From assembly GCF_055900595.2 (NCBI RefSeq), contig NZ_CM148325.1: a stretch of 64,000 bases of DNA, one strand, 5' to 3'. The translations under genes were made by a program, and so were the position numbers. The stretch's first letter is position 1; each line of letters opens with the position of its first letter. Shown piece after piece: positions 1-61,350 of the stretch. The notes below the pieces were generated by a model. That model had not been told where the DNA came from. It did no database searches and worked only from the letters and a program-made list of their open reading frames with translations.

Positions 1-675
1 GGAACCGTCATGCTGCTTCGTCTCATATTTCACGAGATAACTGGCTCTGTTCCGGGCTTTCTGCAGCGCTTCCACATCACCACGCTTGATCCAGAGAACA
101 GCGGCTTCACCCGGCTTTTTTTCTGAAGCCTTCCTGGTATCAGAACATCCACCCGACAAAGGCGTGTCATCGGAAGAAGGGCGAGCATCAGACGATGCTG
201 GTTTACGGGAAGGCGTCCACCTGGAAAAATGGACCAGGCCATCGCCTTGCCAGGCCTCAAGATGCAGGGCGCTGCACCATGCCTCCAGGATCATCGTCGC
301 CAGCGAAGATGGTTCGCTGAAATCCCCTGGCGAGCACCAGGTATCTTTGTTGAGCAGCAATATCACGTGATAATGTTTCCTGCCTTTTTCCTTGCCAAAC
401 TCCCGACACCAGAAATAACGCAGAGTGGTTGCACGCACACGCTTGTTGGCACGTCGTTTTTTCCGCTGGTAAGCCTGGATTTTGGCTTTCAGGGATTCGA
501 AAAAACGAGAAATCACCGCTGAATCCGGATCGGGATCCATGATGGTGACAGGCATATACTCAGGGAAACGTAAATCCACCCGGATTAACGAGACGGCACG
601 GTGCTGCGACAGGGCACTGTCGAGAAGGCTGTCAAAACGGGATAACCAGTAAGCATTGTGTATTGGTTGATTCAT
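1..675 (-). CDS. Island protein, YagK/YfjJ-like (inovirus Gp2-like family); partial, start codon at 675, continues beyond window start
   Basis: Reverse-strand reading frame open from ATG at 673-675 to position 1 without stop (about 225 codons, MNQPIHNAYWLSRFDSLLDS...); absent from ORF track presumably because no stop lies in the window. Family assignment from memory of CP4-type island proteins, not verified. Confidence 0.55.
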   Translation of the reverse strand, partial: MNQPIHNAYWLSRFDSLLDSALSQHRAVSLIRVDLRFPEYMPVTIMDPDPDSAVISRFFESLKAKIQAYQRKKRRANKRVRATTLRYFWCREFGKEKGRKHYHVILLLNKDTWCSPGDFSEPSSLATMILEAWCSALHLEAWQGDGLVHFSRWTPSRKPASSDARPSSDDTPLSGGCSDTRKASEKKPGEAAVLWIKRGDVEALQKARNRASYLVKYETKQHDGS

Positions 676-2252
676 GATGAGAGATCTCCGTTGATTTGGA
701 TTGACTTCACATCATTAATCACCGCGGTAAAACTTTACGGCATCATGTCATTAAGCAATGCTACAACTCTCTGATTAAGAGTGATTGAAACGGAACAAAC
801 CATCCCGGAACGAAAAGATAATCCTGCACACAGCAGCAAAACACGCAACAACAGCATGAATGGATTTAAAAACGACATGGACGACGAGAAAAGCCTGAAG
901 GGAAAAGGATCCACAGAACATTCGAACAAAACACCAGAAACGCAACCAGAACGCTTCCTGGCAATGCAAATCAACAACAACGCCAAAACCTACAGCTTAA
1001 TCACACAACTCAATCACGAATGCGAATGACACGTTTAAAACCTGTTTACAGATAACGCCGTAACACGATCATCCCCATCACCATCAGAATCGATTTTCTC
1101 ATCCCGAAAATGTTACGTTTCACTACGCACCATAAAAACGGTTAACCATCGATAACGTAAACCTTATCTGAATCAAAAACACCAAAACCGTTCATCACAC
1201 TTTCGCAATGCAAGAAGAAACCTCATGACAAAAAGAATGACCTTACACGGAAAAGAAAACGTCAGGAATCGTTAATGCCTCAATCTGATTGTTATCAAAA
1301 CATCCAGAAAGTCGTTTAACAGAATCGTCGTAAGCACATCGAAAAGAACGTCAGATCACCTCAGGAAAGTTCGGGTTGATTTAGCGTAAAGATACTTTTC
1401 TCAGCTTAACGTCGAAACACAAACCAAAAACCACAAACAACCAAAGCTCAGGAAAGGTTAAACGTCACATCAGTAAAATCGAATAGCAGATTGATTGCTT
1501 AAACAGGAAGGATTGTTTTACAGCAGCATTAAACTGATTTAGTTAACGTAAAATCAGAACTGACAGGTTTACTAACTTGGATGTGTATCAGTTCAAAAAT
1601 GTGTACAGCAATGCGTAATGAAACACATTTAAAGGAGATTAATGGGAAAGTGTGTAAATGCGTAAACAGGCACTAATGAATCACTGGAGGAATACATACA
1701 AAACGACTTAATGAAAACATAAAAGGACCTAATGGAAAAGGTGTATATAATACCATATCCGACATTCTCAACATCTTAAGACATCCATGCAGACTGAATG
1801 TTGGTTTCAGTTTTTCACGGTAAGCATGAATCTTTTCTGTTCAAAAGCAGAGCAGATTTACTCTGGAATTATTTTTCTTACTCCGTATTCTGTACAGCAA
1901 AAACTTGTGCTAACTTTACAGCAAACCATCATAATCAGCGTCTGTAGTCCCATCGCTTTACCCCATGAAAGTGAATCCATATGATGTGAGAGAGATAAGT
2001 CATCGTATCCGGTAAACACTGCTTACTATAACATAAGATCATTCAGTCAGTTTTATCTCTGAACTGACGATTATGGCATGCTCATTTATATGGCTCACAG
2101 AGGAGTGTTATTATCCGTAAGCTTTAATCATCAAATCACATGACCATACCAAACTGGCGCTATATCAGCTCATTTGACGCTCATTCCCTTTAGATTTCTT
2201 TATGTGTTTTTTGTTGATAATTAAAATGTAATATAAATTTAATATTTTCAAA

Positions 2253-3476
2253 TCATAAACACCATTTAAAACCATCATCCTGAACATCATACAACAATAT
2301 ATTTTTACTAAAGCATGAATTGTATACTTCTATTAATTCAGGAAAATTATCAGGATTCACCTTTAAATTCAACTGAATGTTACACTTAATTTCACTCAGC
2401 AGTTCTTCATGCGTGGATTTTATTATCCCTTTATCATAATCTATAAATACACACATGTTTTTCATGAATTCAAACCCTTTTCCTGTATACAGTTTGATGA
2501 ATGCCACAAGAGCAAACATTTCAAGATGCAGCCATAATGCCACGTGAGTTTTTCGCAAAGTATAAAAAATTGAATTCGCCACTTTTTTACTTATTGCTCT
2601 TTTGTACTGTGAGTGCGCCAGATTCAGTAGTGGCAATTCTCTCTCGATAAATGAAAGTGAAAAAGACGGGTAAATTGATGTCGGAAATATTTCAGGTCTT
2701 ATGATATTTTCGATTTCCACCATAAATCTATCCATAGAACGAAAATCATTTTCTTTTTTTATTCTGGTATAGAGACCGCCTTTATTCCTTACTGCGACTT
2801 TTTTTCGTGCTATCCCCCCCAACATTTCCTCTAATTGTTTATTTATCTTCGTATCATTAAATACAACCATTCTTCTTATCATCCTGGGAAGGATGATAAT
2901 ATCAGAGCTTGAATCACTTGAACGGCAATTATTATTGATCCATGCAACTTCAAGTTGAAGTATCGGAACATTAAATTCTCTGGGGTTAATAACTCTCTGA
3001 TATTGTTTTTTGTATGCGTTTTCATTAAGATATTCTCTGCTGTAGAGAAACTTATAGCAATATAATCTGACAATATCCTTTATGTAAGATTTAAATGAGT
3101 CACCTGTAACAGATATATTTTTTCTTCTCAGTAACTCCTGTGTATTGAGCCATTCCCGTGACCGGAGTACTCCATTATGAAGACTTTTTCTTACTTGCTT
3201 TGAATTGCGCAATTGATGTAATATTTTTGCGTCCTCAACAATTCTCTTTCCCGTTTGATTTCTTGCAGCATCTATTACTCTGTCAAATATCTCCCGGTCC
3301 AGACTTTTGTCATATTTACTGATTATACGACAAATATTCCTGACCCGACGGTTCTCTTTATTTCGTTTCCATAACTGATAATGATCATCACATAACCTCA
3401 GGGCATTTGCCTCATCAAATTCTGAAACAGGATTGCTGCATTTTTTATTCCGACAGATACCTTTGTTTTTAGCCAT
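2253..3476 (-). CDS. Hypothetical protein, 407 aa, strongly AT-rich, Lys/Asn/Ile-rich; N-terminal Cys-x4-Cys...Cys-x2-His motif; no family recognised
   Basis: Long uninterrupted ORF in ORF track; spot counts of lines give roughly 22-37% GC versus about 50% in flanking core genes; sits between YfjJ-like and YfjP-like island genes. Confidence 0.75.
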   Translation of the reverse strand: MAKNKGICRNKKCSNPVSEFDEANALRLCDDHYQLWKRNKENRRVRNICRIISKYDKSLDREIFDRVIDAARNQTGKRIVEDAKILHQLRNSKQVRKSLHNGVLRSREWLNTQELLRRKNISVTGDSFKSYIKDIVRLYCYKFLYSREYLNENAYKKQYQRVINPREFNVPILQLEVAWINNNCRSSDSSSDIIILPRMIRRMVVFNDTKINKQLEEMLGGIARKKVAVRNKGGLYTRIKKENDFRSMDRFMVEIENIIRPEIFPTSIYPSFSLSFIERELPLLNLAHSQYKRAISKKVANSIFYTLRKTHVALWLHLEMFALVAFIKLYTGKGFEFMKNMCVFIDYDKGIIKSTHEELLSEIKCNIQLNLKVNPDNFPELIEVYNSCFSKNILLYDVQDDGFKWCL

Positions 3477-3576
3477 ACTCTTCTTCCCGTCAATGGAAAA
3501 ATTTTCACGTCCATATTACCTGACTGAGAGGCCGGATTAATGTGATCCGGTTCAGTGAAATCAACAGGATAACGGT

Positions 3577-4461
3577 ATGTCATTCAGCCATTCTTCCCTC
3601 TCCGCACACGTAAAGTCACATCTGACCTTTCTTCCTGAAGAAATTCGCCAGAAAATCCTTGAACATCTTCGCAGCGTCATTCAGTACGAACCCGTTATTG
3701 GCATTATGGGTAAATCCGGTGCCGGAAAAAGCAGCCTGTGCAATGCCATTTTTCAGTCCCGTGTCTGCGCCACGCATCCGCTGAACGGCTGCACCCGTCA
3801 GGCTCATCGTCTTACCTTTCAGCCCGGTGAACGAAGAATGACGCTGGTCGATCTGCCCGGCACTGGCGAAACACCACAGCATGATCAGGAATACCGGGCA
3901 CTTTACAGTCAGTTACTGCCCGAACTGGATCTGATTATCTGGATCCTGCGGGCTGATGAACGTGCGTATGCTGCCGACATCGCCATGCATCAGTTTTTAC
4001 TGAATGAAGGTGCCGATCCCTCGCGTTTTCTGTTTGTTCTCAGCCATGCCGATCGCATCCACCCGGCTGAAGAATGGAACAACCAGAGCAGCACGCCATC
4101 CCGTCAGCAGGAACTCTCACTGGCGACGGTGACAGCCCGGGTGGCAACCCTGTTCCCTTCATCATTTCCGGTACTCCCCATAGCCGCTCCTGCCGGCTGG
4201 AATCTTCCGGCATTTGTGTCTCTGATGATCCACGCCCTGCCACCACAGGCAACCAGCGCGGTTTATTCGCATATCCGGAATGAAAAGCGCACTGCGCAGG
4301 ATCAGCAACACGCACAGCAGGCTTTTGGTGACGCCATCGGCCAGAGTTTTGACGCTGCCATTGCCCGGTTCAGCTTTCCGGCCTGGATGCTGCAGCTTCT
4401 GCGCAAAGCCCGTGATCGCATTATCCGCCTGCTGATCACACTGTGGGATCGCCTGTTCTGA
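3577..4461 (+). CDS. Island GTPase, YfjP/YkfA/YeeP-like (P-loop GTP-binding protein)
   Basis: 294-aa ORF with Walker A motif GIMGKSGAGKSS; sequence resembles K-12 prophage GTPases YfjP/YkfA. Confidence 0.85.
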   Translation: MSFSHSSLSAHVKSHLTFLPEEIRQKILEHLRSVIQYEPVIGIMGKSGAGKSSLCNAIFQSRVCATHPLNGCTRQAHRLTFQPGERRMTLVDLPGTGETPQHDQEYRALYSQLLPELDLIIWILRADERAYAADIAMHQFLLNEGADPSRFLFVLSHADRIHPAEEWNNQSSTPSRQQELSLATVTARVATLFPSSFPVLPIAAPAGWNLPAFVSLMIHALPPQATSAVYSHIRNEKRTAQDQQHAQQAFGDAIGQSFDAAIARFSFPAWMLQLLRKARDRIIRLLITLWDRLF

Positions 4462-4646
4462 ATGTCCCCGCTTTTTGACCGGCCCCGGCGATAACCAGGA
4501 AACGCATTTCCGGTTGCGTCACCACAATGCTGAAGGGCTTCGGTAAACCCTCATTCATTTCATCCATCAGGCCGCGTCTTCTCCGTGAGACGCGGCTTTT
4601 TCATTGATTACGTCATTCAGTCTTAACCACTGATAAGGAGCAAAGT

Positions 4647-5465
4647 ATGCGATTAGCCAGTCGTTTTGGTTATGCGAACCAGATACGCCGTGACCGTCCG
4701 CTGACCCGTGAAGAGCTGATGCACCATGTGCCCGGGATTTTCGGGGAAGATAAACACACCTCCCGGAGCCGGAACTATACATACATCCCCACCATCACCG
4801 TGCTGGAAAGCCTGCAGCGGGAAGGCTTTCAGCCATTCTTCGCCTGCCAGACCCGCGTACGTGACCCGGGCCGCCGGGGGTATACCAAACACATGCTGCG
4901 TCTGCGCCGTGACGGGGAGATAAACGGACAACATGTCCCTGAAATTATTCTGCTCAACTCTCATGACGGTACCTCCAGCTACCAGATGCTGCCGGGTTAC
5001 TTCAGGTTCGTCTGCCAGAACGGATGCGTCTGCGGTCAGTCTCTGGGGGAAGTGCGTGTTCCGCACCGGGGAAATGTGGTGGACAGAGTCATTGAAGGGG
5101 CTTACGAGGTGGTGGGCGTGTTTGACCGGATAGAGGAGAAGCGTGATGCCATGCAGTCGCTGGTCCTGCCGCCACCGGCACGCCAGGCGCTGGCACAGGC
5201 GGCACTGACTTACCGTTATGGTGACGAACATCAGCCCGTCACCACCGCCGACATTCTGACACCACGACGCCGGGAGGATTACGGTAAGGACCTGTGGAGT
5301 GCTTATCAGACCATCCAGGAGAATATGCTGAAAGGCGGGATTTCCGGTCGCAGTGCAAAAGGAAAACGTATCCATACCCGGGCCATTCACAGCATTGATA
5401 CCGATATAAAACTCAACCGCGCATTGTGGGTGATGGCAGAAACGCTGCTTGAGAGCATGCGCTGA
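4647..5465 (+). CDS. DUF932-family island protein, YfjQ-like
   Basis: 272-aa ORF; position after the GTPase gene and similarity to YfjQ as recalled. Confidence 0.75.
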   Translation: MRLASRFGYANQIRRDRPLTREELMHHVPGIFGEDKHTSRSRNYTYIPTITVLESLQREGFQPFFACQTRVRDPGRRGYTKHMLRLRRDGEINGQHVPEIILLNSHDGTSSYQMLPGYFRFVCQNGCVCGQSLGEVRVPHRGNVVDRVIEGAYEVVGVFDRIEEKRDAMQSLVLPPPARQALAQAALTYRYGDEHQPVTTADILTPRRREDYGKDLWSAYQTIQENMLKGGISGRSAKGKRIHTRAIHSIDTDIKLNRALWVMAETLLESMR

Positions 5466-5546
5466 TGCCGTTTCCCTGAGTGAGGGAATCATTCAGCTTT
5501 CGTTCCTGAAAAACACACATTTATTTGTTATTTAAGGCGTTATCTC

Positions 5547-6026
5547 ATGAAAACCGTTTCTCAGAATACCCCCACAATTTATTCAGCTACAACACCAGAG
5601 AATAATCCGCCTCAGTTGGTTGCCAGCCTCGTCCCTGATGAACAGCGCATCAGCTTCTGGCCGCAGCATTTTGGCCTCATTCCACAGTGGGTGACCCTGG
5701 AGCCCCGTGTCTTCGGCTGGATGGACCGTCTGTGCGAAGACTACTGCGGTGGTATCTGGAATCTGTACACCCTGAACAACGGCGGGGCATTTATGGCCCC
5801 CGAACCGGATGATGATGATGACGAAACATGGGTACTGTTCAATGCCATGAACGGTAACCGCGCTGAAATGAGCCCGGAAGCCGCCGGCATTGCTGCCTGT
5901 CTGATGACGTACAGTCATCACGCCTGCCGTACGGAGTGTTATGCCATGACGGTTCATTATTACCGTCTGCGGGATTACGCCCTGCAGCATCCGGAATGCA
6001 GCGCCATTATGCGCATCATTGACTGA
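5547..6026 (+). CDS. Antirestriction protein, KlcA/ArdB-like (YfjX/YafX family)
   Basis: 159-aa ORF with acidic DDDDDE tract; conserved position preceding RadC-like gene in CP4-type islands. Confidence 0.75.
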   Translation: MKTVSQNTPTIYSATTPENNPPQLVASLVPDEQRISFWPQHFGLIPQWVTLEPRVFGWMDRLCEDYCGGIWNLYTLNNGGAFMAPEPDDDDDETWVLFNAMNGNRAEMSPEAAGIAACLMTYSHHACRTECYAMTVHYYRLRDYALQHPECSAIMRIID

Positions 6027-6041
6027 AAGGGGGCCGGAACA

Positions 6042-6518
6042 ATGCAACAGATTTCCTTTCTGCCCGGAGAAATGACAACCAGAGAGCGCAGCCTCATTCA
6101 GCGGGCCCTGAAAGCCCTGGACCGCCATCTTCATGAACCCGGCGTGGTCTTCACCTCCACGCATGCGGCACGGGAATGGCTGATTCTGAACATGGCGGGA
6201 CTGGAGCGTGAAGAATTCCGGGTGCTGTATCTGAACAACCAGAATCAGCTGATTGCCGGTGAAACCCTCTTCACCGGCACCATCAACCGCACGGAAGTCC
6301 ATCCCCGGGAAGTGATTAAACGCGCCCTGTACCACAATGCCGCTGCCGTGGTGCTGGCACACAATCACCCGTCCGGTGAAGTCACACCCAGTAAGGCAGA
6401 CCGCCTTATTACGGAACGTCTGGTACAGGCGCTGGCCCTGGTGGATATCCGGGTGCCGGACCATCTGATAGTCGGTGGCAGCCAGGTTTTCTCCTTTGCC
6501 GAACATGGTCTGCTTTAA
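6042..6518 (+). CDS. RadC-like JAB/JAMM domain protein (YfjY/YeeS/YkfG family)
   Basis: 158-aa ORF containing JAMM metal-binding motif HNHPSG...D (VVLAHNHPSGEVTPSKADRLITERL). Confidence 0.85.
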   Translation: MQQISFLPGEMTTRERSLIQRALKALDRHLHEPGVVFTSTHAAREWLILNMAGLEREEFRVLYLNNQNQLIAGETLFTGTINRTEVHPREVIKRALYHNAAAVVLAHNHPSGEVTPSKADRLITERLVQALALVDIRVPDHLIVGGSQVFSFAEHGLL

Positions 6519-6580
6519 CCCGTCACAACCACATCACACCTGTTTTCACTTTTATCTTCTGTCTTCAGAGGTATCCCATT

Positions 6581-6802
6581 ATGAAAATCATCACCCGTGG
6601 TGAAGCCATGCGTATTCACCAACAGCATCCTGCATCCCGTCTTTTTCCGTTCTGTACCGGCAAATACCGCTGGCACGGCAGCACTGAAACGTATACCGGT
6701 CGTGAAGTGCAGGATATTCCCGGTGTGCTGGCTGTGTTTGCAGAACGTCGTAAGGACAGTTTTGGCCCGTATGTCCGGCTGATGAGCGTCACCCTGAACT
6801 GA
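6581..6802 (+). CDS. DUF987 protein (YeeT/YpjJ/YkfH family)
   Basis: 73-aa ORF in conserved island position after RadC-like gene. Confidence 0.7.
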   Translation: MKIITRGEAMRIHQQHPASRLFPFCTGKYRWHGSTETYTGREVQDIPGVLAVFAERRKDSFGPYVRLMSVTLN

Positions 6803-6816
6803 GTCAGGGCATTCTG

Positions 6817-7447
6817 ATGAGCAGAATTATCACCATCACAGTGTATACGCTGGATGAACTTTCCTGCCCGGCACGGGAAAAAGCCCGCGACGGGTACCGT
6901 CAGCATCATGCTGACAGCAACTGGTATGAAAACGTGTATGAAGACTTCAGGGAGGTCTGTGGCATTTTCGGAATTGACCTCCGCCAGCGCGTTTTCCGGC
7001 TCAGCAACGGCAGGTTTATGGAGGAGCCGAGCATCTGGTTCAGCGGATTCTGCAGCCAGGGACGGAGCCTGTTTTGAAGGACGCTGGCACTGGCAGTCAG
7101 CAACAACCAGGAGAGTCCGGGAGTATGCCCCGCAGAACCGTGAGCTTCATCGTATCGCGGATGCCCTGCAGGCGGTGCAGAAACGTAACTTCTGGCAACT
7201 GCAGGCTGAAATCCACCACCGGGGACGTTACTGCCATCCGTTATCACTGTTACCCGGAACAGTCCGACTGGTCAGGCTATGACAGCCGATGCGGAAGCCG
7301 CTGTCAGCGAAGCCCTGCGCGACCTGGCCTTCTGGCTGTACCGTCAACTGGAAAACGAGTACGACCAGATGACCTCAGACGCCGCTGTGGATGAGGCCAT
7401 TCTCATCAATGCATACATCTTCACCGAAACCGGTCAGCGCACCGGCT
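6817..7447 (+). pseudogene. Island gene apparently disrupted by frameshifts (about 210 codons spread over three reading frames)
   Basis: Contiguous overlapping ORFs 6817-7077 (frame 1), 6854-7282 (frame 2), 7074-7394 (frame 3) and a frame-1 tail 7279-7447; pattern typical of a frameshifted gene. Identity not recognised. Confidence 0.35.
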
Positions 7448-7498
7448 GACCTGTCATCGTTAAACCATTCTTAACCACTTTTCAGAGAGGATTTTATC

Positions 7499-7867
7499 GT
7501 GTCAGACACACTCTCCGGGATAACTCATCCCGACGACAATCACGACCGCCCCTGGTGGGGGCTTCCCTGCACAGTGAGGCCCTGTTTTGGCGCCCGTCTG
7601 GTGCAGGAGGGTAACCGCCTGCATTACCTTGCCGACCGCGCCGGCATCAGAGGCCGGTTCAGCGATGCGGATGCATACCATCTGGACCAGGCCTTTCCGC
7701 TGCTGATGAAACAACTGGAACTCATGCTCACCAGCGGTGAACTGAATCCCCGCCATCAGCATACCGTCACGCTGTATGCAAAAGGGCTGACCTGCGAAGC
7801 CGACACCCTCGGCAGTTGTGGTTACGTTTATCTGGCTGTTTATCCGACGCCCGAAACGAAAAAGTAA
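7499..7867 (+). CDS. Type IV antitoxin, CbeA/YfjZ/YafW family
   Basis: 122-aa ORF MSDTLSGITHPDDNHDRPWWGLPCTV... closely resembles K-12 CbeA (YeeU)/YfjZ. Confidence 0.85.
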   Translation: MSDTLSGITHPDDNHDRPWWGLPCTVRPCFGARLVQEGNRLHYLADRAGIRGRFSDADAYHLDQAFPLLMKQLELMLTSGELNPRHQHTVTLYAKGLTCEADTLGSCGYVYLAVYPTPETKK

Positions 7868-7957
7868 ACCACCGGAATAACCTTCTGCTCCGGCCAGGTG
7901 TTTTCACCACGCCACTCTCCCCATAATTTAATCTCTCATATCAGGAAAATCTTCAGT

Positions 7958-8368
7958 ATGAAATTATTACCCGACACACATGTACGGGAGGCATCGTGCT
8001 GCCCGTCTCCCGTCACCATCTGGCAGACACTGCTCATCCGTCTGCTGGACCAGCACTATGGCCTCACACTGAATGACACACCGTTCGCTGATGAACGTGT
8101 GATTGAGCAGCATATTGAGGCCGGCATTTCACTGTGCGATGCGGTGAACTTTCTCGTTGAAAAATACGCACTGGTACGTACCGACCAGCCGGGATTCAGC
8201 GCAGGAGCCCCGTCGCAGTTAATCAACAGCATCGATATTCTCCGGGCCCGCCGGGCAACAGGCCTGATGACACGTAATAACTACAGAATGGTAAATAACA
8301 TTACCCTGGGTAGCATCCGGGGGCGAAACGATGAAACTTTCCCTGACGCTGGAAGCCGACAGCATTAA
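7958..8368 (+). CDS. Type IV toxin, CbtA/YpjF/YkfI family (cytoskeleton-inhibiting toxin)
   Basis: ORF from ATG at 7958 (MKLLPD...[60 protein letters not shown]...) matches CbtA-like toxins; immediately downstream of antitoxin. C-terminal extent uncertain. Confidence 0.8.
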
Positions 8369-8753
8369 CGTGCAGGCACTGAACATGGGGCGCATTGTCG
8401 TTGACATTGATGGTGTAAATCTCGCTGAACTGATTAACAAGGTCGCTGAATACGGTTATTCACTCCGCGTGGTGGATGAACGTGACGCTACCGAAACACC
8501 GGCGACTTCTGCCAGCTCTCATCAGTTGCCGGAAGACAATACAGTGATACAGAGCGTGATGCCATTAACCACTGAAACAGCGCTGGATATCCTCATTGCG
8601 TGGCTGCAGGACAATATCGACTGCGGGTCCGGAATTATTTTCGACAACGATGAGGATAAAACGGATTCGGCAGCACTGCTGCCCTGTATTGAACAGGCCA
8701 GGGAGGATATCCGTACCCTGCACCAACTGCAACTTCTGCACCAGAACCGGTGA
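8331..8753 (+). CDS. YeeW-like island protein
   Basis: 140-aa ORF following the toxin gene as in CP4-44/CP4-57 modules; assignment by position and recalled similarity. Confidence 0.55.
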
Positions 8754-8837
8754 ATCTCACTCACCAGACTTCATTCTCCTGACGCCAGCCTGAACAGAGC
8801 TGGCGTTTTCGTTTATAAACAGAAAGGAAACCCCATA

Positions 8838-9623
8838 ATGTCATATATCACAATCCCCCACCCGAACGCGGTCAACGGACATACAGCCGTTATCTGTTCC
8901 ACAAGTATCAGACACATCCTGGCTGTACGAAAGAGTACACTGCTGCAAATCGACACGCTTATCCGGCAACTGACAGAAATCTCAGCACTGACGGAAAGTA
9001 TTGGCGGTAAAGCCGCCCCGGACTGGGCGATGAAACAGAATTTTCGCTGTGGTTGCTGGCTGATGGAGAAACCAGAAACAGCAATGAAAGCCATTACCCG
9101 GAATCTTGACCGCGAAATCTGGCGTAACCTGATGCAGCGTTCCGGGATGCTTTCCTTAATGGATGCACAGGCACGTGATACATGGTACAGGTCACTGGAA
9201 TATGATAATTTTCCGGAAATCAGTGAAGCGAACATTCTGAGCACATTTGAACAACTGCACCAGAATAAGGATGAAGTGTTTGAGCGGGGGGTGATCAACC
9301 TCTTCAAAGGGCTGAGCTGGGATTACAAAACCAACTCACCCTGTAAATTTGGCAGTAAAATTATCGTCAACAATCTGGTGAGGTGGGACCAGTGGGGATT
9401 TCATCTTATCAGTGGAATGCAGGCAGATCGCCTGGCTGACCTGGAAAGAATGTTGCATCTGCTCAGCGGTAAACCGATCCCCGACAACCGGGGAATATCA
9501 CCATTAATCTGGATGACCACATACAGTCCGTTCAGGGTAAAGGACGCTATGAAGATGAGATGTTCATCATTAAATACTTTAAGAAGGGAGCTGCACACAT
9601 CACTTTCAAAAGGCTGGAGCTGA
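8838..9623 (+). CDS. Hypothetical island-terminal protein, 261 aa
   Basis: Uninterrupted ORF with plausible RBS context; last gene before the tRNA-fragment repeat. Family not recognised. Confidence 0.6.
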   Translation: MSYITIPHPNAVNGHTAVICSTSIRHILAVRKSTLLQIDTLIRQLTEISALTESIGGKAAPDWAMKQNFRCGCWLMEKPETAMKAITRNLDREIWRNLMQRSGMLSLMDAQARDTWYRSLEYDNFPEISEANILSTFEQLHQNKDEVFERGVINLFKGLSWDYKTNSPCKFGSKIIVNNLVRWDQWGFHLISGMQADRLADLERMLHLLSGKPIPDNRGISPLIWMTTYSPFRVKDAMKMRCSSLNTLRRELHTSLSKGWS

Positions 9624-9789
9624 TTGACAGAATTAACGATATAATAGCCAGGCACTTTCCTTCTGTGCTCTCAGCCTGACCCCGAGTTTGATTCCCTTTC
9701 GATATCAAAAGGGACTGCGGGTACAAAAGAGGGTACATCTTTCACCAAACCAAACAAAATAAACCAATATCAACATGATAGAAGCATTC

Positions 9790-9811
9790 TTCGATTCCGA
9801 GTCCGGCACCA
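9790..9811 (+). repeat. tRNA-Phe 3'-end fragment (attR-type direct repeat of island integration site)
   Basis: TTCGATTCCGAGTCCGGCACCA matches the 3' end of E. coli tRNA-Phe (TTCGATTCCGAGTCCGGGCACCA) with one G missing; upstream sequence does not continue as tRNA. Confidence 0.7.
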
Positions 9812-9822
9812 AATTCATATAA

Positions 9823-9848
9823 ACGGACCTCCACGGAGGTCCGTTTTT
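9823..9848 (+). terminator. Rho-independent terminator (native pheU terminator)
   Basis: Perfect inverted repeat ACGGACCTCC / GGAGGTCCGT followed by TTTTT. Confidence 0.75.
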
Positions 9849-10442
9849 CGTTTCAGGACGCCATGTGATTTAAGCGTTCTGCCTTCAAATCATTTCTAAC
9901 AATCTCAACCAAATTTTCCCTAATCGCCAGCATGTTACGGGTATACCCCAGCTCTGGGAAATTTATCCCTAAGCTATGAATGACTCTCACGAAATGTCGT
10001 GCGGCTGCGTGATGCAGTTGAAAATCAAATGATGTCATCAAGAGCTTAACGGTATCGTTGCCGATGACATATATAAAGCACAACCTCGGGCAGAACGCCG
10101 ACTGATGAGATTTTCTGAATGAGAACAAAGAGTAATGTCTCAGTTCGTTTGCTCATGCAAAGACTAATAATCCATGAAAATAGTAAGTGCTCTGAGAAAT
10201 TTTCCATGGATTATTTTCTGAACATTTTTCTTTGGCAAAGATGATGAATTTTGATGATAAGGAATATTACTTCTGGTTCTCAGTAAACTCCTTTCGTAAT
10301 ACTATGTAATCAAGAAGTTTATGGCGGGTAAAAATAACGTCTTACATTCACCAACAATATGTAAATAAACCCATCTATAGATGGTAAAAATAGGTCATGG
10401 CAATTATCATTGAACCATTCCCTTTTCGAATGAGTTTCTATT

Positions 10443-11152
10443 ATGCAACAACCTGTAGTTCGCGTTGGCGAATGGCTTGTTACTCCGTCCATAAACCAAA
10501 TTAGCCGCAATGGGCGTCAACTTACCCTTGAGCCGAGATTAATCGATCTTCTGGTTTTCTTTGCTCAACACAGTGGCGAAGTACTTAGCAGGGATGAACT
10601 TATCGATAATGTCTGGAAGAGAAGTATTGTCACCAATCACGTTGTGACGCAGAGTATCTCAGAACTACGTAAGTCATTAAAAGATAATGATGAAGATAGT
10701 CCTGTCTATATCGCTACTGTACCAAAGCGCGGCTATAAATTAATGGTGCCGGTTATCTGGTACAGCGAAGAAGAGGGAGAGGAAATAATGCTATCTTCGC
10801 CTCCCCCTATACCAGAGGCGGTTCCTGACACAGATTCTCCCTCCCAAAGTCTTAACATTCAAAACACCGCAACACCACCTGAACAATCCCCAGTTAAAAG
10901 CAAACGATTCACTACCTTTTGGGTATGGTTTTTTTTCCTGTTGTCGTTAGGTATCTGTGTAGCACTGGTAGCGTTTTCAAGTCTTGATACACGTCTTCCT
11001 ATGAGCAAATCGCGTATTTTGCTCAATCCACGCGATATTGACATTAATATGGTAAATAAAAGTTGTAACAGCTGGAGTTCCCCGTATCAGCTCTCTTACG
11101 CGATAGGCGTGGGTGATTTGGTGGCGACATCACTTAACACCTTCTCCACCTT
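10443..11152 (+). pseudogene. cadC: cadC 5' fragment (DNA-binding domain and transmembrane segment) truncated by IS1 insertion
   Basis: ORF MQQPVVRVGEWLVTPSINQISRNGRQLTLEPRLIDLL... equals CadC N-terminus; reading frame runs into IS1 and ends 6 codons later (VMLPTY-stop at 11174). Confidence 0.9.
11144..11152. repeat. IS1 target-site duplication, left copy (CTCCACCTT)
   Basis: Identical 9-bp sequence immediately flanks both IS1 ends. Confidence 0.85.
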
Positions 11153-11207
11153 GGTGATGCTGCCAACTTACTGATTTAGTGTATGATGGTGTTTTTGAGG
11201 TGCTCCA

Positions 11208-11483
11208 GTGGCTTCTGTTTCTATCAGCTGTCCCTCCTGTTCAGCTACTGACGGGGTGGTGCGTAACGGCAAAAGCACCGCCGGACATCAGCGCTATCTC
11301 TGCTCTCACTGCCGTAAAACATGGCAACTGCAGTTCACTTACACCGCTTCTCAACCCGGTACGCACCAGAAAATCATTGATATGGCCATGAATGGCGTTG
11401 GATGCCGGGCAACTGCCCGCATTATGGGCGTTGGCCTCAACACGATTTTACGTCACTTAAAAAACTCAGGCCGCAGTCGGTAA
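11208..11483 (+). CDS. insA: IS1 InsA (transposition repressor / N-terminal part of InsAB' transposase)
   Basis: 91-aa [94 protein letters not shown]. Confidence 0.95.
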
Positions 11484-11905
11484 CCTCGCGCATACAGCCG
11501 GGCAGTGACGTCATCGTCTGTGCGGAAATGGACGAACAGTGGGGCTATGTCGGGGCTAAATCGCGCCAGCGCTGGCTGTTTTACGCGTATGACAGGCTCC
11601 GGAAGACGGTTGTTGCGCACGTATTCGGTGAACGCACTATGGCGACGCTGGGGCGTCTTATGAGCCTGCTGTCACCCTTTGACGTGGTGATATGGATGAC
11701 GGATGGCTGGCCGCTGTATGAATCCCGCCTGAAGGGAAAGCTGCACGTAATCAGCAAGCGATATACGCAGCGAATTGAGCGGCATAACCTGAATCTGAGG
11801 CAGCACCTGGCACGGCTGGGACGGAAGTCGCTGTCGTTCTCAAAATCGGTGGAGCTGCATGACAAAGTCATCGGGCATTATCTGAACATAAAACACTATC
11901 AATAA
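11402..11905 (+). CDS. insB: IS1 InsB (C-terminal part of InsAB' transposase)
   Basis: 167-aa ORF matching IS1 InsB (…[33 protein letters not shown]…). Confidence 0.95.
11457..11465 (+). promoter_or_regulatory. IS1 programmed -1 ribosomal frameshift site (A6C motif TTAAAAAAC)
   Basis: Sequence TTAAAAAAC at the insA/insB overlap, the known site producing InsAB' transposase. Confidence 0.75.
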
Positions 11906-11920
11906 GTTGGAGTCATTACC

Positions 11921-11929
11921 CTCCACCTT
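11921..11929. repeat. IS1 target-site duplication, right copy (CTCCACCTT)
   Basis: Identical to 11144-11152. Confidence 0.85.
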
Positions 11930-12758
11930 TATGGTGCATGACAAAATCAACTACAACATTGATGAACCGAGCAGTTCCGGTAAAACATTATCTATTGCGT
12001 TTGTTAATCAGCGCCAATACCGTGCTCAACAATGCTTTATGTCGGTAAAATTGGTAGACAATGCAGATGGTTCAACCATGCTGGATAAACGTTATGTCAT
12101 CACTAACGGTAATCAGCTGGCGATTCAAAATGATTTACTGGAGAGTTTATCAAAAGCGTTAAACCAACCGTGGCCACAACGAATGCAGGAGATGCTCCAG
12201 CAAATTTTGCCTCATCGTGGTGCGTTATTAACTAATTTTTATCAGGCACATGATTATTTACTGCATGGCGATGATAAATCATTGAACCGTGCCAGTGAAT
12301 TACTAGGTGAGATTGTTCAATCATCCCCCGAATTTACCTACGCGAGAGCAGAAAAAGCATTAGTTGATATCGTGCGCCATTCTCAACATCCTTTAGATGA
12401 AAAACAATTAGCAGCACTGAATACAGAAATAGATAACATTGTTACACTGCCGGAATTGAACAACCTGTCCATTATATATCAAATAAAAGCGGTCAGTGCT
12501 CTGGTAAAAGGTAAAACAGATGAGTCTTACCAGGCGATAAATACTGGCATTGATCTTGAAATGTCCTGGCTAAATTATGTGTTGCTTGGCAAGGTTTATG
12601 AAATGAAGGGGATGAACCGGGAAGCAGCTGATGCATATCTCACCGCCTTTAATTTACGCCCAGGGGCAAACACCCTTTACTGGATTGAAAATGGTATATT
12701 CCAGACTTCTGTTCCTTATGTTGTACCTTATCTCGACAAATTTCTCGCCTCAGAATAA
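11921..12758 (+). pseudogene. cadC: cadC 3' fragment (periplasmic sensor domain) separated from its 5' part by IS1
   Basis: Frame reading STFMVHDKINYNIDEPSSSGKTLSIAFVNQRQYRAQQCF... to stop at 12758 matches the CadC periplasmic domain. Confidence 0.9.
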
Positions 12759-13122
12759 GTGACTCCCGGGTTGACTCATGCTCGGGAATATTTGTTGTTG
12801 ATTTTTTGTATGTTATTGTTGGTATAATATGTTGCGGCAATTTATTTGCCGCATAATTTTTATCACATAAATTTAACCATGGAATATTCTGCAATCTATT
12901 GTAAACATTGAATGTTTATCTTTTCATGATATCAACTTGCGATCCTGATGTGTTAATAAAAAACCTCAAGTTCTCACTTACAGAAACTTTTGTGTTATTT
13001 CACCTAATCTTTAGGATTAATCTTTTTTTTTGAGTAATCTTGTCGCCAGTTTGGTCTGGTCAGTAAATAGTTACGCATCATGACCCGGACTCCAAATTCA
13101 AAAATGAAATTAGGAGAAGAGC
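12759..13122 (+). promoter_or_regulatory. cadBA promoter region (Pcad; CadC-binding region inferred)
   Basis: AT-rich 364-bp intergenic region upstream of cadB; position-based inference from the known cad operon organisation, individual sites not mapped. Confidence 0.45.
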
Positions 13123-27598: not shown

Positions 27599-28249
27599 AT
27601 GACCCGCACACTCAAGCCGTTAATTCTTAACACCGGCGCACTGGCGCTAACGTTAATCCTGATTTATACCGGCATTTCGGCCCATGACAAACTCACCTGG
27701 CTGATGGAAGTGACGCCGGTGATTATTGTCGTGCCGCTACTGCTTGCCACCGCCAGACGTTACCCGTTAACGCCGCTGCTCTATACGCTCATTTTCTTTC
27801 ATGCCATCATCCTGATGGTCGGCGGACAATACACCTACGCGAAAGTCCCCGTTGGTTTTGACGTGCAAGAATGGCTGGGATTGAGCCGTAATCCGTATGA
27901 CAAGCTGGGGCATTTTTTCCAGGGGCTGGTGCCTGCACTGGTGGCGCGAGAAATTCTCGTTCGCGGGATGTACGTGCGCGGACGTAAAATGGTGGCGTTT
28001 CTGGTCTGCTGCGTGGCGCTGGCGATAAGCGCGATGTATGAATTAATCGAGTGGTGGGCAGCGCTGGCAATGGGTCAGGGAGCGGATGATTTTCTCGGTA
28101 CCCAAGGCGACCAATGGGACACACAATCCGATATGTTCTGCGCGCTACTTGGTGCATTAACGACGGTGATGTTCCTCGCTCGCTTTCATTACCGCCAGCT
28201 ACGGCGCTTTGGCTTAATCACCAGAGCGCCGGAAGCGATTACCTCTTAA
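27599..28249 (+). CDS. yjdF: Inner membrane protein YjdF
   Basis: 216-aa membrane ORF MTRTLKPLILNTGALALTLILIYTGISAHDKL...; its stop codon overlaps the melA stop on the other strand. Confidence 0.8.
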   Translation: MTRTLKPLILNTGALALTLILIYTGISAHDKLTWLMEVTPVIIVVPLLLATARRYPLTPLLYTLIFFHAIILMVGGQYTYAKVPVGFDVQEWLGLSRNPYDKLGHFFQGLVPALVAREILVRGMYVRGRKMVAFLVCCVALAISAMYELIEWWAALAMGQGADDFLGTQGDQWDTQSDMFCALLGALTTVMFLARFHYRQLRRFGLITRAPEAITS

Positions 28250-57260: not shown

Positions 57261-57578
57261 TCAATTTTTCCGCTGCTCTATTGCCGTAATCGCCTCCACA
57301 CGTTGTTGATGACGACCGCCTTCGTACTGCGCGCCCAGCCACGCATCCACAATCATTTTTGCCAGTTCGAGGCCAACCACTCGTGAACCAAAAGCCAGTG
57401 CAACTTCACTGGCGTAATGCGGATAATCAGTGCGCTCTGACGACCTGGTTTCTTTATCAATCCCCTCACTCATTGACCATGAATAAAAGGCTGGCACAGC
57501 AACGCAGAATCCTGCGGTGCCAGCGACATGACCGCCCATTGCTCCGGTACGTTTTTTAATAAGAAACACCGGTTGCAT
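57261..57578 (-). pseudogene. rpiB: rpiB remnant (ribose-5-phosphate isomerase B with internal deletion)
   Basis: 105-aa ORF contains SSERTDYPHYAS and C-terminal FGSRVVGLELAKMIVDAWLGAQYEGGRHQQRVEAITAIEQR matching RpiB, but lacks about 50 central residues. Confidence 0.7.
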
Positions 57579-57830
57579 TGATTAATTGTGCTCAGTATTT
57601 GCCGAAGTACAATATATATAATAAATATATAAAACACCTCATATTATTTACAGAGATAATAAATTCGCATACTTTTCCCTCTTCAGCACAAATGCCTAAT
57701 AAAATGGCTCGTTCCGCTCACACTTCCACTTATTAAAATCGCAATTTCCCAATTATGATAACGCCAGCTTTAAATGACGTATTTTGCATGGATTACATAT
57801 TTACGACACAAATGATAAATGGAGATTTAT

Positions 57831-59816
57831 ATGAATAACTCTCGGTTATTCCGTTTGAGCAGGATTGTTATTGCGTTAACTGCCGCCAGCGGCATGATGG
57901 TAAATACCGCTCACGCAACAGATGAAGCGAAAGCCGCCACTCAATATACCCAACAGGTTAATCAGAATTACGCCAAATCATTACCGTTTAGCGATCGTCA
58001 GGATTTTGACGATGCCCAGCGCGGATTTATCGCCCCGCTGCTGGATGAAGGTATTCTGCGCGATGCGAATGGCAAAGTTTACTACCGCGCGGATGATTAC
58101 AAATTTGATATTAATGCCGCTGCGCCGGAAACCGTAAACCCCAGCCTGTGGCGTCAGTCGCAGATCAACGGCATTTCTGGCCTGTTCAAAGTCACCGATA
58201 AAATGTATCAGGTGCGCGGCCAGGATATCTCTAACATTACATTCGTTGAGGGCGAGAAAGGCATTATTGTTATCGACCCACTGGTGACACCGCCTGCCGC
58301 AAAAGCCGCACTTGACCTTTACTTCCAGCATCGTCCGCAAAAACCGATTGTTGCTGTTATTTACACCCACAGCCACGCCGACCATTATGGCGGTGTGAAA
58401 GGCATTATCTCTGAAGCGGATGTTAAATCTGGCAAAGTGCAGGTGATCGCTCCGGCAGGCTTTATGGACGAAGCCATCAGCGAAAACGTGCTGGCGGGTA
58501 ACATCATGAGCCGCCGTGCGCTCTACTCTTACGGTCTGTTACTGCCGCACAACGCGCAAGGCAACGTGGGCAACGGCCTGGGCGTGACGCTGGCAACGGG
58601 CGATCCGAGCATTATTGCGCCAACCAAAACGATTGTCAGAACTGGCGAGAAGATGGTTATCGACGGTCTGGAGTTTGACTTTCTGATGACTCCGGGTAGC
58701 GAAGCGCCAGCCGAAATGCACTTCTATATTCCGGCCCTGAAAGCCCTGTGTACCGCCGAAAACGCCACGCATACCCTGCACAACTTCTACACCCTGCGCG
58801 GCGCGAAAACCCGCGATACCAGCAAGTGGACAGCGTATCTGAACGAAACGCTGGATATGTGGGGTAACGACGCGGAAGTACTGTTTATGCCGCACACCTG
58901 GCCGGTCTGGGGCAATAAGCATATCAATGATTATATTGGTAAATATCGCGATACTATCAAATACATTCACGACCAGCCCCTGCACCTGGCGAACCAGGGT
59001 TACACCATGAATGAAATCGGCGACATGATTAAGCTGCCACCTGCGCTTGCCAATAACTGGGCCAGCCGCGGCTATTACGGTTCTGTTAGCCACAACGCCC
59101 GTGCAGTGTATAACTTCTATCTCGGCTATTATGACGGCAATCCAGCTAACCTACATCCGTACGGTCAGGTGGAGATGGGCAAACGTTACGTGAAAGCGCT
59201 GGGCGGTTCCGCCCGTGTCATCAACCTGGCGCAAGAAGCGAACAAGCAAGGGGATTACCGCTGGTCAGCAGAGTTGCTGAAACAATTGATTGCCGCCAAT
59301 CCGGGTGACCAGGTGGCGAAGAATCTGCAAGCAAATAACTTTGAACAGTTGGGTTATCAGGCCGAGTCCGCCACCTGGCGCGGTTTCTACCTGACCGGCG
59401 CAAAAGAGCTGCGCGAAGGGGTGCATAAGTTCAGCCACGGCACCACCGGTTCTCCGGACACCCTTCGCGGGATGTCGGTCGAAATGCTGTTCGACTTTAT
59501 GGCCGTTCGCCTCGATAGCGCGAAAGCCGCAGGTAAGAATATCAGCCTGAACTTCAATATGAGCAACGGCGATAACCTCAACCTGACGCTGAACGATAGC
59601 GTGCTTAACTACCGTAAAACGCTGCAACCTGAAGCCAACGCCTCTTTCTACATCAGCCGTGAAGATCTTCACGCCGTGCTGACCGGACAAGCCAAAATAG
59701 CGGATCTGGTAAAAGTGAAGAAAGCCAAAATTATTGGCAATGGCGCGAAACTGGAAGAAATTATTGCCTGTCTGGATAATTTCGATTTGTGGGTGAATAT
59801 CGTAACCCCAAATTAA
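57831..59816 (+). CDS. yjcS: Putative alkyl/aryl-sulfatase YjcS (metallo-beta-lactamase fold)
   Basis: 661-aa frame from ATG 57831 ([29 protein letters not shown]...) with signal peptide and [10 protein letters not shown] motif. Confidence 0.85.
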
Positions 59817-59824
59817 TGCCACTC

Positions 59825-59862
59825 ACTTTTGGGGGCGCTTAAGCCCCCAAAAGTATTTATTT
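59825..59862 (+). terminator. Rho-independent terminator downstream of yjcS
   Basis: TTTTGGGGGCGCTTAAGCCCCCAAAAG hairpin followed by T-rich tract. Confidence 0.65.
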
Positions 59863-60024
59863 TAAAAATACATACAACCAATTAATACATAAAATATATA
59901 AGTTATGAATGCGGTGGCTGAATAAAGCTATTTTTATTCATCGAGAAAATAGCCATACTGACGCCTTCAATGGATATTGATATTCACTACAGATATTGTT
60001 CGCAGCAGACAGGATGTATTTAAT

Positions 60025-60300
60025 ATGCCAACAGTTCTCTCTCGCATGGCGATGCAACTCAAAAAAACAGCCTGGATAATTCCCGTCTTCATGGTTTCGG
60101 GATGCTCATTATCTCCGGCAATCCCGGTGATCGGCGCTTATTATCCCAGCTGGTTTTTCTGCGCCATTGCCAGCCTTATTTTGACGCTCATCACGAGGCG
60201 AATTATTCAGCGGGCAAATATCAATCTGGCATTTGTCGGAATTATTTATACCGCCCTTTTTGCTCTCTACGCCATGCTGTTCTGGCTGGCATTTTTCTAA
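60025..60300 (+). CDS. ytcA: Small lipoprotein/membrane protein YtcA
   Basis: 91-aa frame from ATG 60025 (MPTVLSRMAMQLKKTAWIIPVFMVSGCSLSPA...). Confidence 0.8.
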   Translation: MPTVLSRMAMQLKKTAWIIPVFMVSGCSLSPAIPVIGAYYPSWFFCAIASLILTLITRRIIQRANINLAFVGIIYTALFALYAMLFWLAFF

Positions 60301-60318
60301 TCTATTTGAGACGCGCTC

Positions 60319-61350
60319 ATGGAAAGTACGCCGAAAAAAGCTCCTCGCAGTAAATTCCCTGCTCTGTTAGTGGTTGCGTTGGCGCTGGTTGCCCTTGTTT
60401 TCGTTATCTGGCGCGTAGACAGTGCGCCATCAACTAATGACGCCTACGCGTCAGCAGATACCATTGATGTGGTGCCGGAAGTCAGCGGTCGCATTGTAGA
60501 ACTGGCGGTCACCGACAACCAGGCGGTGAAACAGGGCGATTTGCTGTTCCGCATCGACCCGCGCCCGTACGAAGCCAATCTGGCGAAAGCCGAAGCCTCC
60601 CTCGCGGCGCTGGATAAGCAAATTATGCTCACCCAGCGTAGCGTTGACGCACAACAGTTTGGTGCCGACTCGGTTAATGCCACGGTAGAAAAAGCCCGTG
60701 CCGCCGCGAAACAGGCCAGCGATACATTACGCCGCACCGAGCCATTACTGAAAGAAGGTTTTGTCTCAGCGGAAGACGTTGACCGCGCAAGAACCGCACA
60801 GCGTGCGGCAGAAGCAGATCTTAATGCCGTATTGTTACAGGCGCAGTCAGCCGCCAGCGCTGTCAGCGGCGTTGATGCACTCGTTGCCCAACGTGCAGCT
60901 GTTGAAGCGGATATCGCCCTGACCAAGTTGCATCTGGAAATGGCAACCGTTCGCGCGCCGTTTGATGGCCGAGTCATTTCCCTCAAAACTTCGGTTGGGC
61001 AATTTGCTTCTGCCATGCGCCCTATTTTCACCCTAATCGACACCCGTCACTGGTACGTGATCGCCAACTTCCGCGAAACCGATCTGAAAAATATTCGCTC
61101 GGGTACACCCGCAACGATTCGCCTGATGAGCGACAGCGGCAAAACCTTCGCAGGTAAAGTGGATTCGATTGGCTACGGCGTGCTACCGGATGACGGCGGC
61201 CTGGTGCTGGGCGGCCTGCCGAAAGTGTCTCGTTCTATTAACTGGGTCCGCGTTGCCCAGCGTTTTCCGGTCAAAATCATGGTTGAAAAACCTGACCCGG
61301 AAATGTTCCGCATCGGCGCTTCGGCAGTCGCTAATCTTGAGCCGCAATAA
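60319..61350 (+). CDS. mdtN: Multidrug efflux membrane fusion protein MdtN
   Basis: 343-aa ORF, HlyD-like. Confidence 0.85.
   Translation: MESTPKKAPRSKFPALLVVALALVALVFVIWRVDSAPSTNDAYASADTIDVVPEVSGRIVELAVTDNQAVKQGDLLFRIDPRPYEANLAKAEASLAALDKQIMLTQRSVDAQQFGADSVNATVEKARAAAKQASDTLRRTEPLLKEGFVSAEDVDRARTAQRAAEADLNAVLLQAQSAASAVSGVDALVAQRAAVEADIALTKLHLEMATVRAPFDGRVISLKTSVGQFASAMRPIFTLIDTRHWYVIANFRETDLKNIRSGTPATIRLMSDSGKTFAGKVDSIGYGVLPDDGGLVLGGLPKVSRSINWVRVAQRFPVKIMVEKPDPEMFRIGASAVANLEPQ

Follow-up and report, generated by a model that had tools for sequence, protein, structure and literature searches.

An imperfect tRNA-Phe repeat marks the distal boundary of a mosaic genomic island upstream of cadC

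Islands with tyrosine recombinases integrate by recombination between an island site (attP) and a chromosomal site (attB) at the 3' end of a tRNA gene, and the tRNA gene is rebuilt at one end of the insertion (attL). The she pathogenicity island (SHI-1) of Shigella flexneri has a P4-type integrase and carries an imperfect repeat of the tRNA 3' end, about 22 bp long, at its borders. It is a pathogenicity island at pheV, and islands at pheU are found in many pathotypes (both reviewed in PMC7545054). At both pheU and pheV, insertions have been reported to terminate in a direct repeat of 22 bp which is shifted by one base compared to Escherichia coli K-12 (PMC6174562, Gut Pathog 2018). The sequence TTCGATTCCGAGTCCGG-CACCA has been described as the attR of the genomic island GI-pheV in many strains, in a study which also defined an 8.9-kb "yee module" as a distal module of GI-pheV islands and remarked that repeat mismatches can reduce island loss (PMC11537424, PLoS Genet 2024). 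Here we describe a junction of this type in a 64,000-nucleotide stretch (hereafter the window) of contig NZ_CM148325.1, assembly GCF_055900595.2, for which an earlier note, made from the letters alone, had proposed the distal arm of an island inserted at pheU and ending in an attR-type remnant. Our analysis supports this proposal, and we hold it to be highly probable that the ~9.8 kb at window 1-9811 form the distal (right-hand) part of a mosaic, tRNA-Phe-targeting island with a P4-type integrase (GI-pheU/GI-pheV) at the chromosomal pheU.

The boundary is marked by a 22-mer (TTCGATTCCGAGTCCGGCACCA) at 9790-9811 on the + strand, which is present in a single copy in the window and was not matched in any of 100 dinucleotide-preserving shuffles, with 2 mismatches permitted. 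Alignment with K-12 showed that it corresponds to the 3' 23 nt of pheU (TTCGATTCCGAGTCCGGGCACCA) less one G of the GGG run (22/23 nt), just as the earlier note had read it, and the intact pheU gene in a close relative, when aligned, showed the same 1-G difference. No tRNA gene was found by ARAGORN in the whole window, in keeping with the claim that 9740-9815 holds no intact tRNA-Phe gene. A repeat identical to this imperfect copy of the tRNA-Phe 3' end is given in Table 1 of PMC11537424, further supporting its assignment as the attR core. The repeat is exactly where island-specific sequence gives way to the native DNA downstream of pheU, which runs from 9812 on. K-12 shows no relationship to the window left of the repeat, and this break in the K-12 alignment shows that the DNA left of 9790 is not the native pheU region. 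One alignment to another locus (H23) covers window 2-9811 and likewise ends precisely at the repeat.

Beyond the repeat, 9812-9859 is identical to the K-12 DNA immediately 3' of pheU. The strong terminator which had been noticed after the repeat is a hairpin at 9821-9846 (+ strand) of 11 pairs followed by a T-run (-18.4 kcal/mol, z = -5.25 compared to shuffles), and the identical hairpin stands directly after pheU in K-12. A local BLAST showed that window 9790-57398 is colinear with K-12 at ~97.6% identity and, because this identity and colinearity start at the repeat, we conclude that the terminator is the native intrinsic terminator of pheU itself and that the DNA from 9812 onwards is native chromosome. 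The cadC gene starts at 10443, 632 bp past 9811 (the earlier estimate was about 630 bp), and the gene order in K-12 is dicD, pheU, yjdQ (annotated as a pseudogene) and cadC; the pheU-cadC spacer of the empty K-12 site aligns with the window from the repeat onward.

In public genomes this island end, with the identical G-less 22-mer, was found to adjoin at least 4 different flanks, namely the flank of pheU, a kps-adjacent sequence, a sigma-54 activator gene and, directly, the integrase of another island. The flank with kps capsule genes is presumably the classical neighbourhood of pheV. A copy at the pheU site with a perfect 23-mer was also found (locus L007). At different attB sites the G-less variant accompanies the island, and the tRNA at attL remains intact; the missing G is therefore most likely on the P (island) side of the core. 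From this we infer that strand exchange took place 3' of the G-run. The presence of the G-less repeat at several sites is an indirect sign of past mobility, and the element itself may be, or have been, capable of excision and integration.

The arrangement at the other end of such an island can be seen in relatives of the window. Among complete E. coli genomes the best matches share 98.3-99% identity with the window, and in the closest, GPEC389 (99% over 1-12000), dicD, an intact tRNA-Phe gene (pheU) and a 421-amino-acid P4-type tyrosine integrase lie 55 kb to the left of attR, the 55-kb interval holding a mosaic cargo with many insertion sequence (IS) copies. PKF11 has the same dicD-pheU-integrase layout with a 41-kb interval that includes resistance genes. 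In the model that we favour, a circular island bearing attP would have recombined with the last ~23 bp of pheU (attB), so that a complete tRNA-Phe gene was rebuilt beside the integrase at the proximal end (attL) and the partial copy at 9790-9811 was left at the distal end (attR). The DNA from 9812 onwards would then be the original pheU-downstream DNA, with the terminator of pheU, a decayed yjdQ-like integrase and then cadC, and the 1-G deletion would belong to the island side of the site and move with the island. From what is reported in the literature, this 1-G mismatch may lower the frequency of excision.

Several observations weigh against so simple a history. The intact pheU, the integrase and attL lie outside the window, so that integration at pheU in this genome is deduced from the junction and from the relatives. 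In B771 (98.8% identical, locus L013) the arm and cadC run left into tRNA-Sec (selC), a different integrase and another island, with copies of IS3 and of a group II intron at the transition. In AR_0085 (NZ_CP029741.1) attR-cadC lies on the - strand at 2.78 Mb and dicD-pheU-int on the + strand at 3.04 Mb, ~250 kb apart and inverted. A 321-nt junction probe was at least 80% covered in 1214/5426 complete E. coli genomes (about a fifth), but this is only an upper bound for pheU junctions, as the ~120-nt flank also occurs upstream of the integrase of this family and tandem island-island junctions would be counted too. A dicD-pheU-int probe could not separate pheU from pheV copies, since the integrase arm is shared, and its count was not used.

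B771 and AR_0085 exemplify recombination between islands that occupy different tRNA sites, and the arm in the window could have reached its present neighbours in a similar way, by inversion or by homologous or IS-mediated recombination; to the left of the window one would then expect another tRNA gene with its integrase (selC, for example) or an inversion breakpoint. The backbone module, which is present at several sites per genome, offers substrates for such recombination. Set against this, GPEC389 and PKF11 keep the simple layout from pheU and the integrase through to attR, the window holds only one IS copy (the IS1 in cadC) and no long repeats, and the junction of attR with its flank would still require an ancestral integration at pheU. 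We regard such a secondary rearrangement as unlikely, although well worth bearing in mind, and pheU with an integrase to the left as the most likely layout in this genome, probable but not guaranteed. In this island family an attR beside its native flank is no sure guide to the other end of the island, because inversions and island-island recombination are favoured by IS copies and by the backbone modules that the islands share.

It might also be supposed that the 22-mer is not an attR at all but a remnant of pheU truncated by a 5' deletion, with the island genes brought in by an unrelated event, as only the 3' part of the tRNA gene is present and this part carries a 1-nt deletion. A local deletion of pheU cannot, however, yield the identical junction that is seen at other chromosomal sites with different flanks; GPEC389 and PKF11, which have the same junction, keep an intact pheU at the other end of the island, and the 5' limit of the repeat is that of the published direct repeat of this island family (PMC11537424, PMC6174562). 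This explanation is effectively refuted and we give it almost no weight. Integration of a GI-pheU/GI-pheV island at pheU remains the reading that we prefer.

The flank into which this island would have inserted has a history of its own. The + strand stretch at 10008-10300 matches the last ~60 codons and downstream DNA of the GPEC389 integrase at ~69% DNA identity (by blastn and tblastn) and is the equivalent of the K-12 yjdQ pseudogene, an internally deleted remnant of a P4-type integrase with its downstream DNA; RefSeq likewise annotates an integrase fragment in a relative, and at the K-12 yjdQ site the first 11 integrase codons are also recognisable, fused to the tail. By its sequence, this stretch is chromosomal flank and appears to be the relic of an older island, which would make the "empty" pheU site of K-12 itself an old island scar. 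The DNA that follows the intact pheU of GPEC389 (attL) has in common with the attR flank not only the 22-23 nt but a further ~120-175 nt, at 91-94% identity, which comprise the terminator and the integrase upstream region. The attL/attR repeat of the relatives is thus longer than 22 nt because the attR flank is itself the decayed end of an older island, and we infer that successive islands may have entered the same tRNA end, with tandem accretion over the older scar.

Within this spacer, the yjdQ-like part at 9860-10110 is much more diverged from both K-12 and GPEC389 than are its surroundings and includes an insertion of 16 bp; from 9790 to 11152 the identity is 93.9%, compared to 97.6% further on. 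The start of this yjdQ-like allele (gacgccatgtgattt) is also found in another locus (L009). These features point to gene conversion or to another allele of the decayed integrase.

Of the island genes, those that the earlier note had listed (GTPase, DUF932, antirestriction, RadC-like, DUF987, antitoxin and toxin) were all confirmed by a Pfam search with the open reading frames (ORFs) of the window itself, for which matches at E <= 0.001 were listed. All lie on the + strand, starting with an island GTPase of the YfjP/YeeP type at 3577-4461 (MMR_HSR1, 3.4e-14; 35% amino acid identity to K-12 YfjP), a YfjQ-like DUF932 protein at 4647-5465 (DUF932, 7.1e-52; 75% to K-12 YfjQ) and an LfgA/YfjX-like antirestriction protein at 5547-6026 (Antirestrict, 3.1e-37; 67% to the CP4-57 copy). 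These are followed by a YeeS-like, RadC-like JAB domain protein at 6042-6518 (RadC, 6.5e-45, with RadC also matched in NCBIfam; 95% to K-12 YeeS) and a YeeT-like DUF987 protein at 6581-6802 (DUF987, 4.2e-39; 96% to K-12 YeeT). The CbeA/YeeU-type antitoxin of a type IV toxin-antitoxin system lies at 7499-7867 (CbeA_antitoxin, 9.3e-55; 92% to K-12 CbeA) and the CbtA/YeeV-type toxin at 7958-8368 (CbtA_toxin, 2.9e-59; 85% to K-12 CbtA), the latter start being that which corresponds to the 136-amino-acid gene call in relatives, as the mechanical ORF starts at 7898. Adjacent and with the antitoxin first, the two genes are predicted to form a type IV toxin-antitoxin pair.

Further genes extend this set on both sides. 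A DUF5983 (YeeW-like) protein is encoded at 8331-8753 (+ strand; DUF5983_N, 1.1e-28), overlapped by a 65-amino-acid ORF at 8596-8793 that corresponds to a gene named DUF957 by RefSeq in a relative, although no DUF957 family was among the Pfam matches listed. The last island gene, at 8838-9623 (+ strand), encodes a DUF4942 protein (DUF4942, 6.7e-46) with a weak PHROG match to a DNA methyltransferase family. At the left edge of the window, 1-675 on the - strand holds the 5' 675 nt of a YagK/YfjJ-type backbone gene ("inovirus Gp2 family" in the RefSeq annotation of a 99%-identical relative; YagK_YfjJ_C, 3.6e-33, and REP_ORF2-G2P, 3.5e-9), the 3' end of which falls outside the window. A frameshifted pseudogene lies at 6817-7449 (+ strand), between the DUF987 and cbeA genes, and is broken into four ORFs (6817-7077, 6854-7282, 7074-7394 and 7279-7449). 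RefSeq names its equivalent in a relative "antitoxin of toxin-antitoxin stability system, frameshifted"; no corresponding family was found for these fragments among the Pfam matches listed. The GTPase, DUF932, antirestriction, RadC, DUF987, CbeA/CbtA, DUF5983 and DUF4942 genes are backbone and not cargo, and it is a conserved distal backbone, the "yee module" (recognised by Pfam and by 85-96% amino acid identity to yeeS, yeeT, cbeA and cbtA), that precedes attR.

Two cryptic elements of K-12 bear on the description of this arm as CP4-57-type. The gene order supports it, as the backbone of CP4-57 (intA...alpA-yfjI-yfjJ...yfjP-yfjQ...lfgA-lfgB-ypjJ-yfjZ-ypjF) runs in the same order of YfjJ-type, GTPase, DUF932, antirestriction, RadC, DUF987, antitoxin and toxin genes. 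The sequences do not, since protein identity of CP4-57 to the window genes is 35-77%, whereas the RadC, DUF987, CbeA and CbtA proteins are closest to those of CP4-44 (yeeP-flu-yeeR-yeeS-yeeT-cbeA-cbtA-yeeW), at 85-96%, with 87-95% DNA identity over window 6066-8585. CP4-57 lies just downstream of smpB in K-12, presumably integrated at ssrA and not at a tRNA-Phe gene, whereas the site in the window is pheU; nor is CP4-44 annotated at pheU in K-12. The window lacks the flu and yeeR genes of CP4-44, identity between its GTPase and the yeeP remnant is only 31%, and it has the DUF932, antirestriction and DUF4942 genes, all three of which are missing from the CP4-44 region that was fetched. The identical attR (TTCGATTCCGAGTCCGG-CACCA), the distal "yee module", the mosaic structure and the P4-type integrase beside the tRNA gene, the last as seen in relatives of the window, are shared with GI-pheU/GI-pheV islands. 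From GI-pheV the window copy differs in being at pheU instead of pheV and otherwise in nothing of substance, except that GI-pheV (PMC11537424), like K-12 CP4-44, carries flu (Ag43) where the window lineage has a 407-amino-acid gene and the DUF932 and antirestriction genes. The SHI-1 cargo genes pic and set were not seen in the window, the two sequences not having been compared directly.

The gene encoding this 407-amino-acid protein (2253-3476, - strand, 33% GC) is transcribed divergently from the GTPase gene and occupies the slot which, between yfjJ and yfjP of CP4-57, holds abpAB and rnlAB in K-12. The protein has an N-terminal C-x4-C...C-x2-H motif, possibly a zinc ribbon, and a helical body, and found no match in Pfam, NCBIfam, PADLOC or PHROGs. 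In a set of 1.84 billion proteins its family has only 43 representatives, and every named member is from Enterobacterales. The AlphaFold2 model has a predicted local distance difference test score (pLDDT) of 83, and its comparison with solved folds returned nothing specific, only generic helical bundles. Citrobacter and Klebsiella have homologues, 33-36% identical, that likewise face the island GTPase gene head-to-head in this position, and other E. coli islands have remote homologues of 376 or 314 amino acids in the same slot (hhalign probabilities of 99.8% and 96%, at 16-19% identity). On both sides the slot is flanked by DNA of 79-91% identity, with homology breaking at ~1876-1889 and at 3502. 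From these comparisons the gene looks like an allelic, hypervariable cassette (~1876-3502), the alleles of which are 16-36% identical.

Between the YfjJ-like gene and the 407-amino-acid gene lies an A-rich, ORF-free spacer of ~1.5 kb (676-2252), for which ORF scans gave no long ORF in any version scanned; an 82-amino-acid ORF at 781-1029 is probably an artefact of the T-poor sequence. Homology breakpoints divide the spacer, its left ~1.2 kb travelling with the YfjJ-like gene and its right ~0.36 kb with the 407-amino-acid gene. Spacer-like sequence was found in 1866/5426 genomes, and no annotated feature lay beneath any of the 25 matches listed. An Rfam scan of 1-13000 (E <= 1) gave no match, RNA folding in sliding windows over 600-2475 on both strands gave z of about 0, and a structured RNA was therefore rejected, nothing having been found to support a functional one; nor did the spacer contain an iteron-like repeat family. 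Its identity to the window in other genomes is 66-87%, compared to 85-93% at third codon positions of the YfjJ-like and 407-amino-acid genes, so that there was no conservation beyond neutral expectation and the spacer diverges as fast as or faster than the third codon positions of its neighbours. It evolves at about the neutral rate, yet has not been deleted.

Some further observations were made in the chromosomal part of the window. The cadC gene (10443 to about 12758) is interrupted by a 768-bp IS1 at 11153-11920, with a 9-bp target duplication (CTCCACCTT) at 11144-11152 and 11921-11929, and the reading frame of cadC::IS1 stops after 243 codons. From this sequence the CadC activator is predicted to be lost and the phenotype to be lysine-decarboxylase-negative, as is known for Shigella and enteroinvasive E. 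coli. Of the complete E. coli genomes among the best matches listed for the cadC::IS1 stretch, none exceeded 98.5% identity, and the only record of the truncated CadC product was in a 1.3-kb contig assembled from reads. At 28225-28246, ~1.66 kb of K-12 (4343266-4344932) is missing and melB has been removed. Colinearity with the K-12 stretch that was fetched ends at 57398 inside rpiB, of which only a C-terminal fragment is left; over 57261-63401 this fragment is followed by genes for a metallo-beta-lactamase-fold protein, mdtN and mdtO, and the als operon, which lies beyond rpiB in K-12, had no match in the window.

The junction and the element are real, but elements of this kind are known and the sequence itself has in effect been described before; as stated, they bring no new biology. 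The value of the analysis is mainly for annotation, as it places the right-hand boundary of an island gained by horizontal transfer exactly at 9811/9812, in a classical hotspot. The sole lead with some novelty is the 407-amino-acid protein and its GTPase neighbour: the protein may belong to a rapidly diversifying family whose genes always lie head-to-head with that of the island GTPase and are exchanged as allelic cassettes, and the pair could form a new functional unit of these islands, although we think this rather doubtful at present. If true, the pair might be, for example, a defence, anti-defence or island-maintenance system, in which a variable specificity subunit would act with a GTPase partner.

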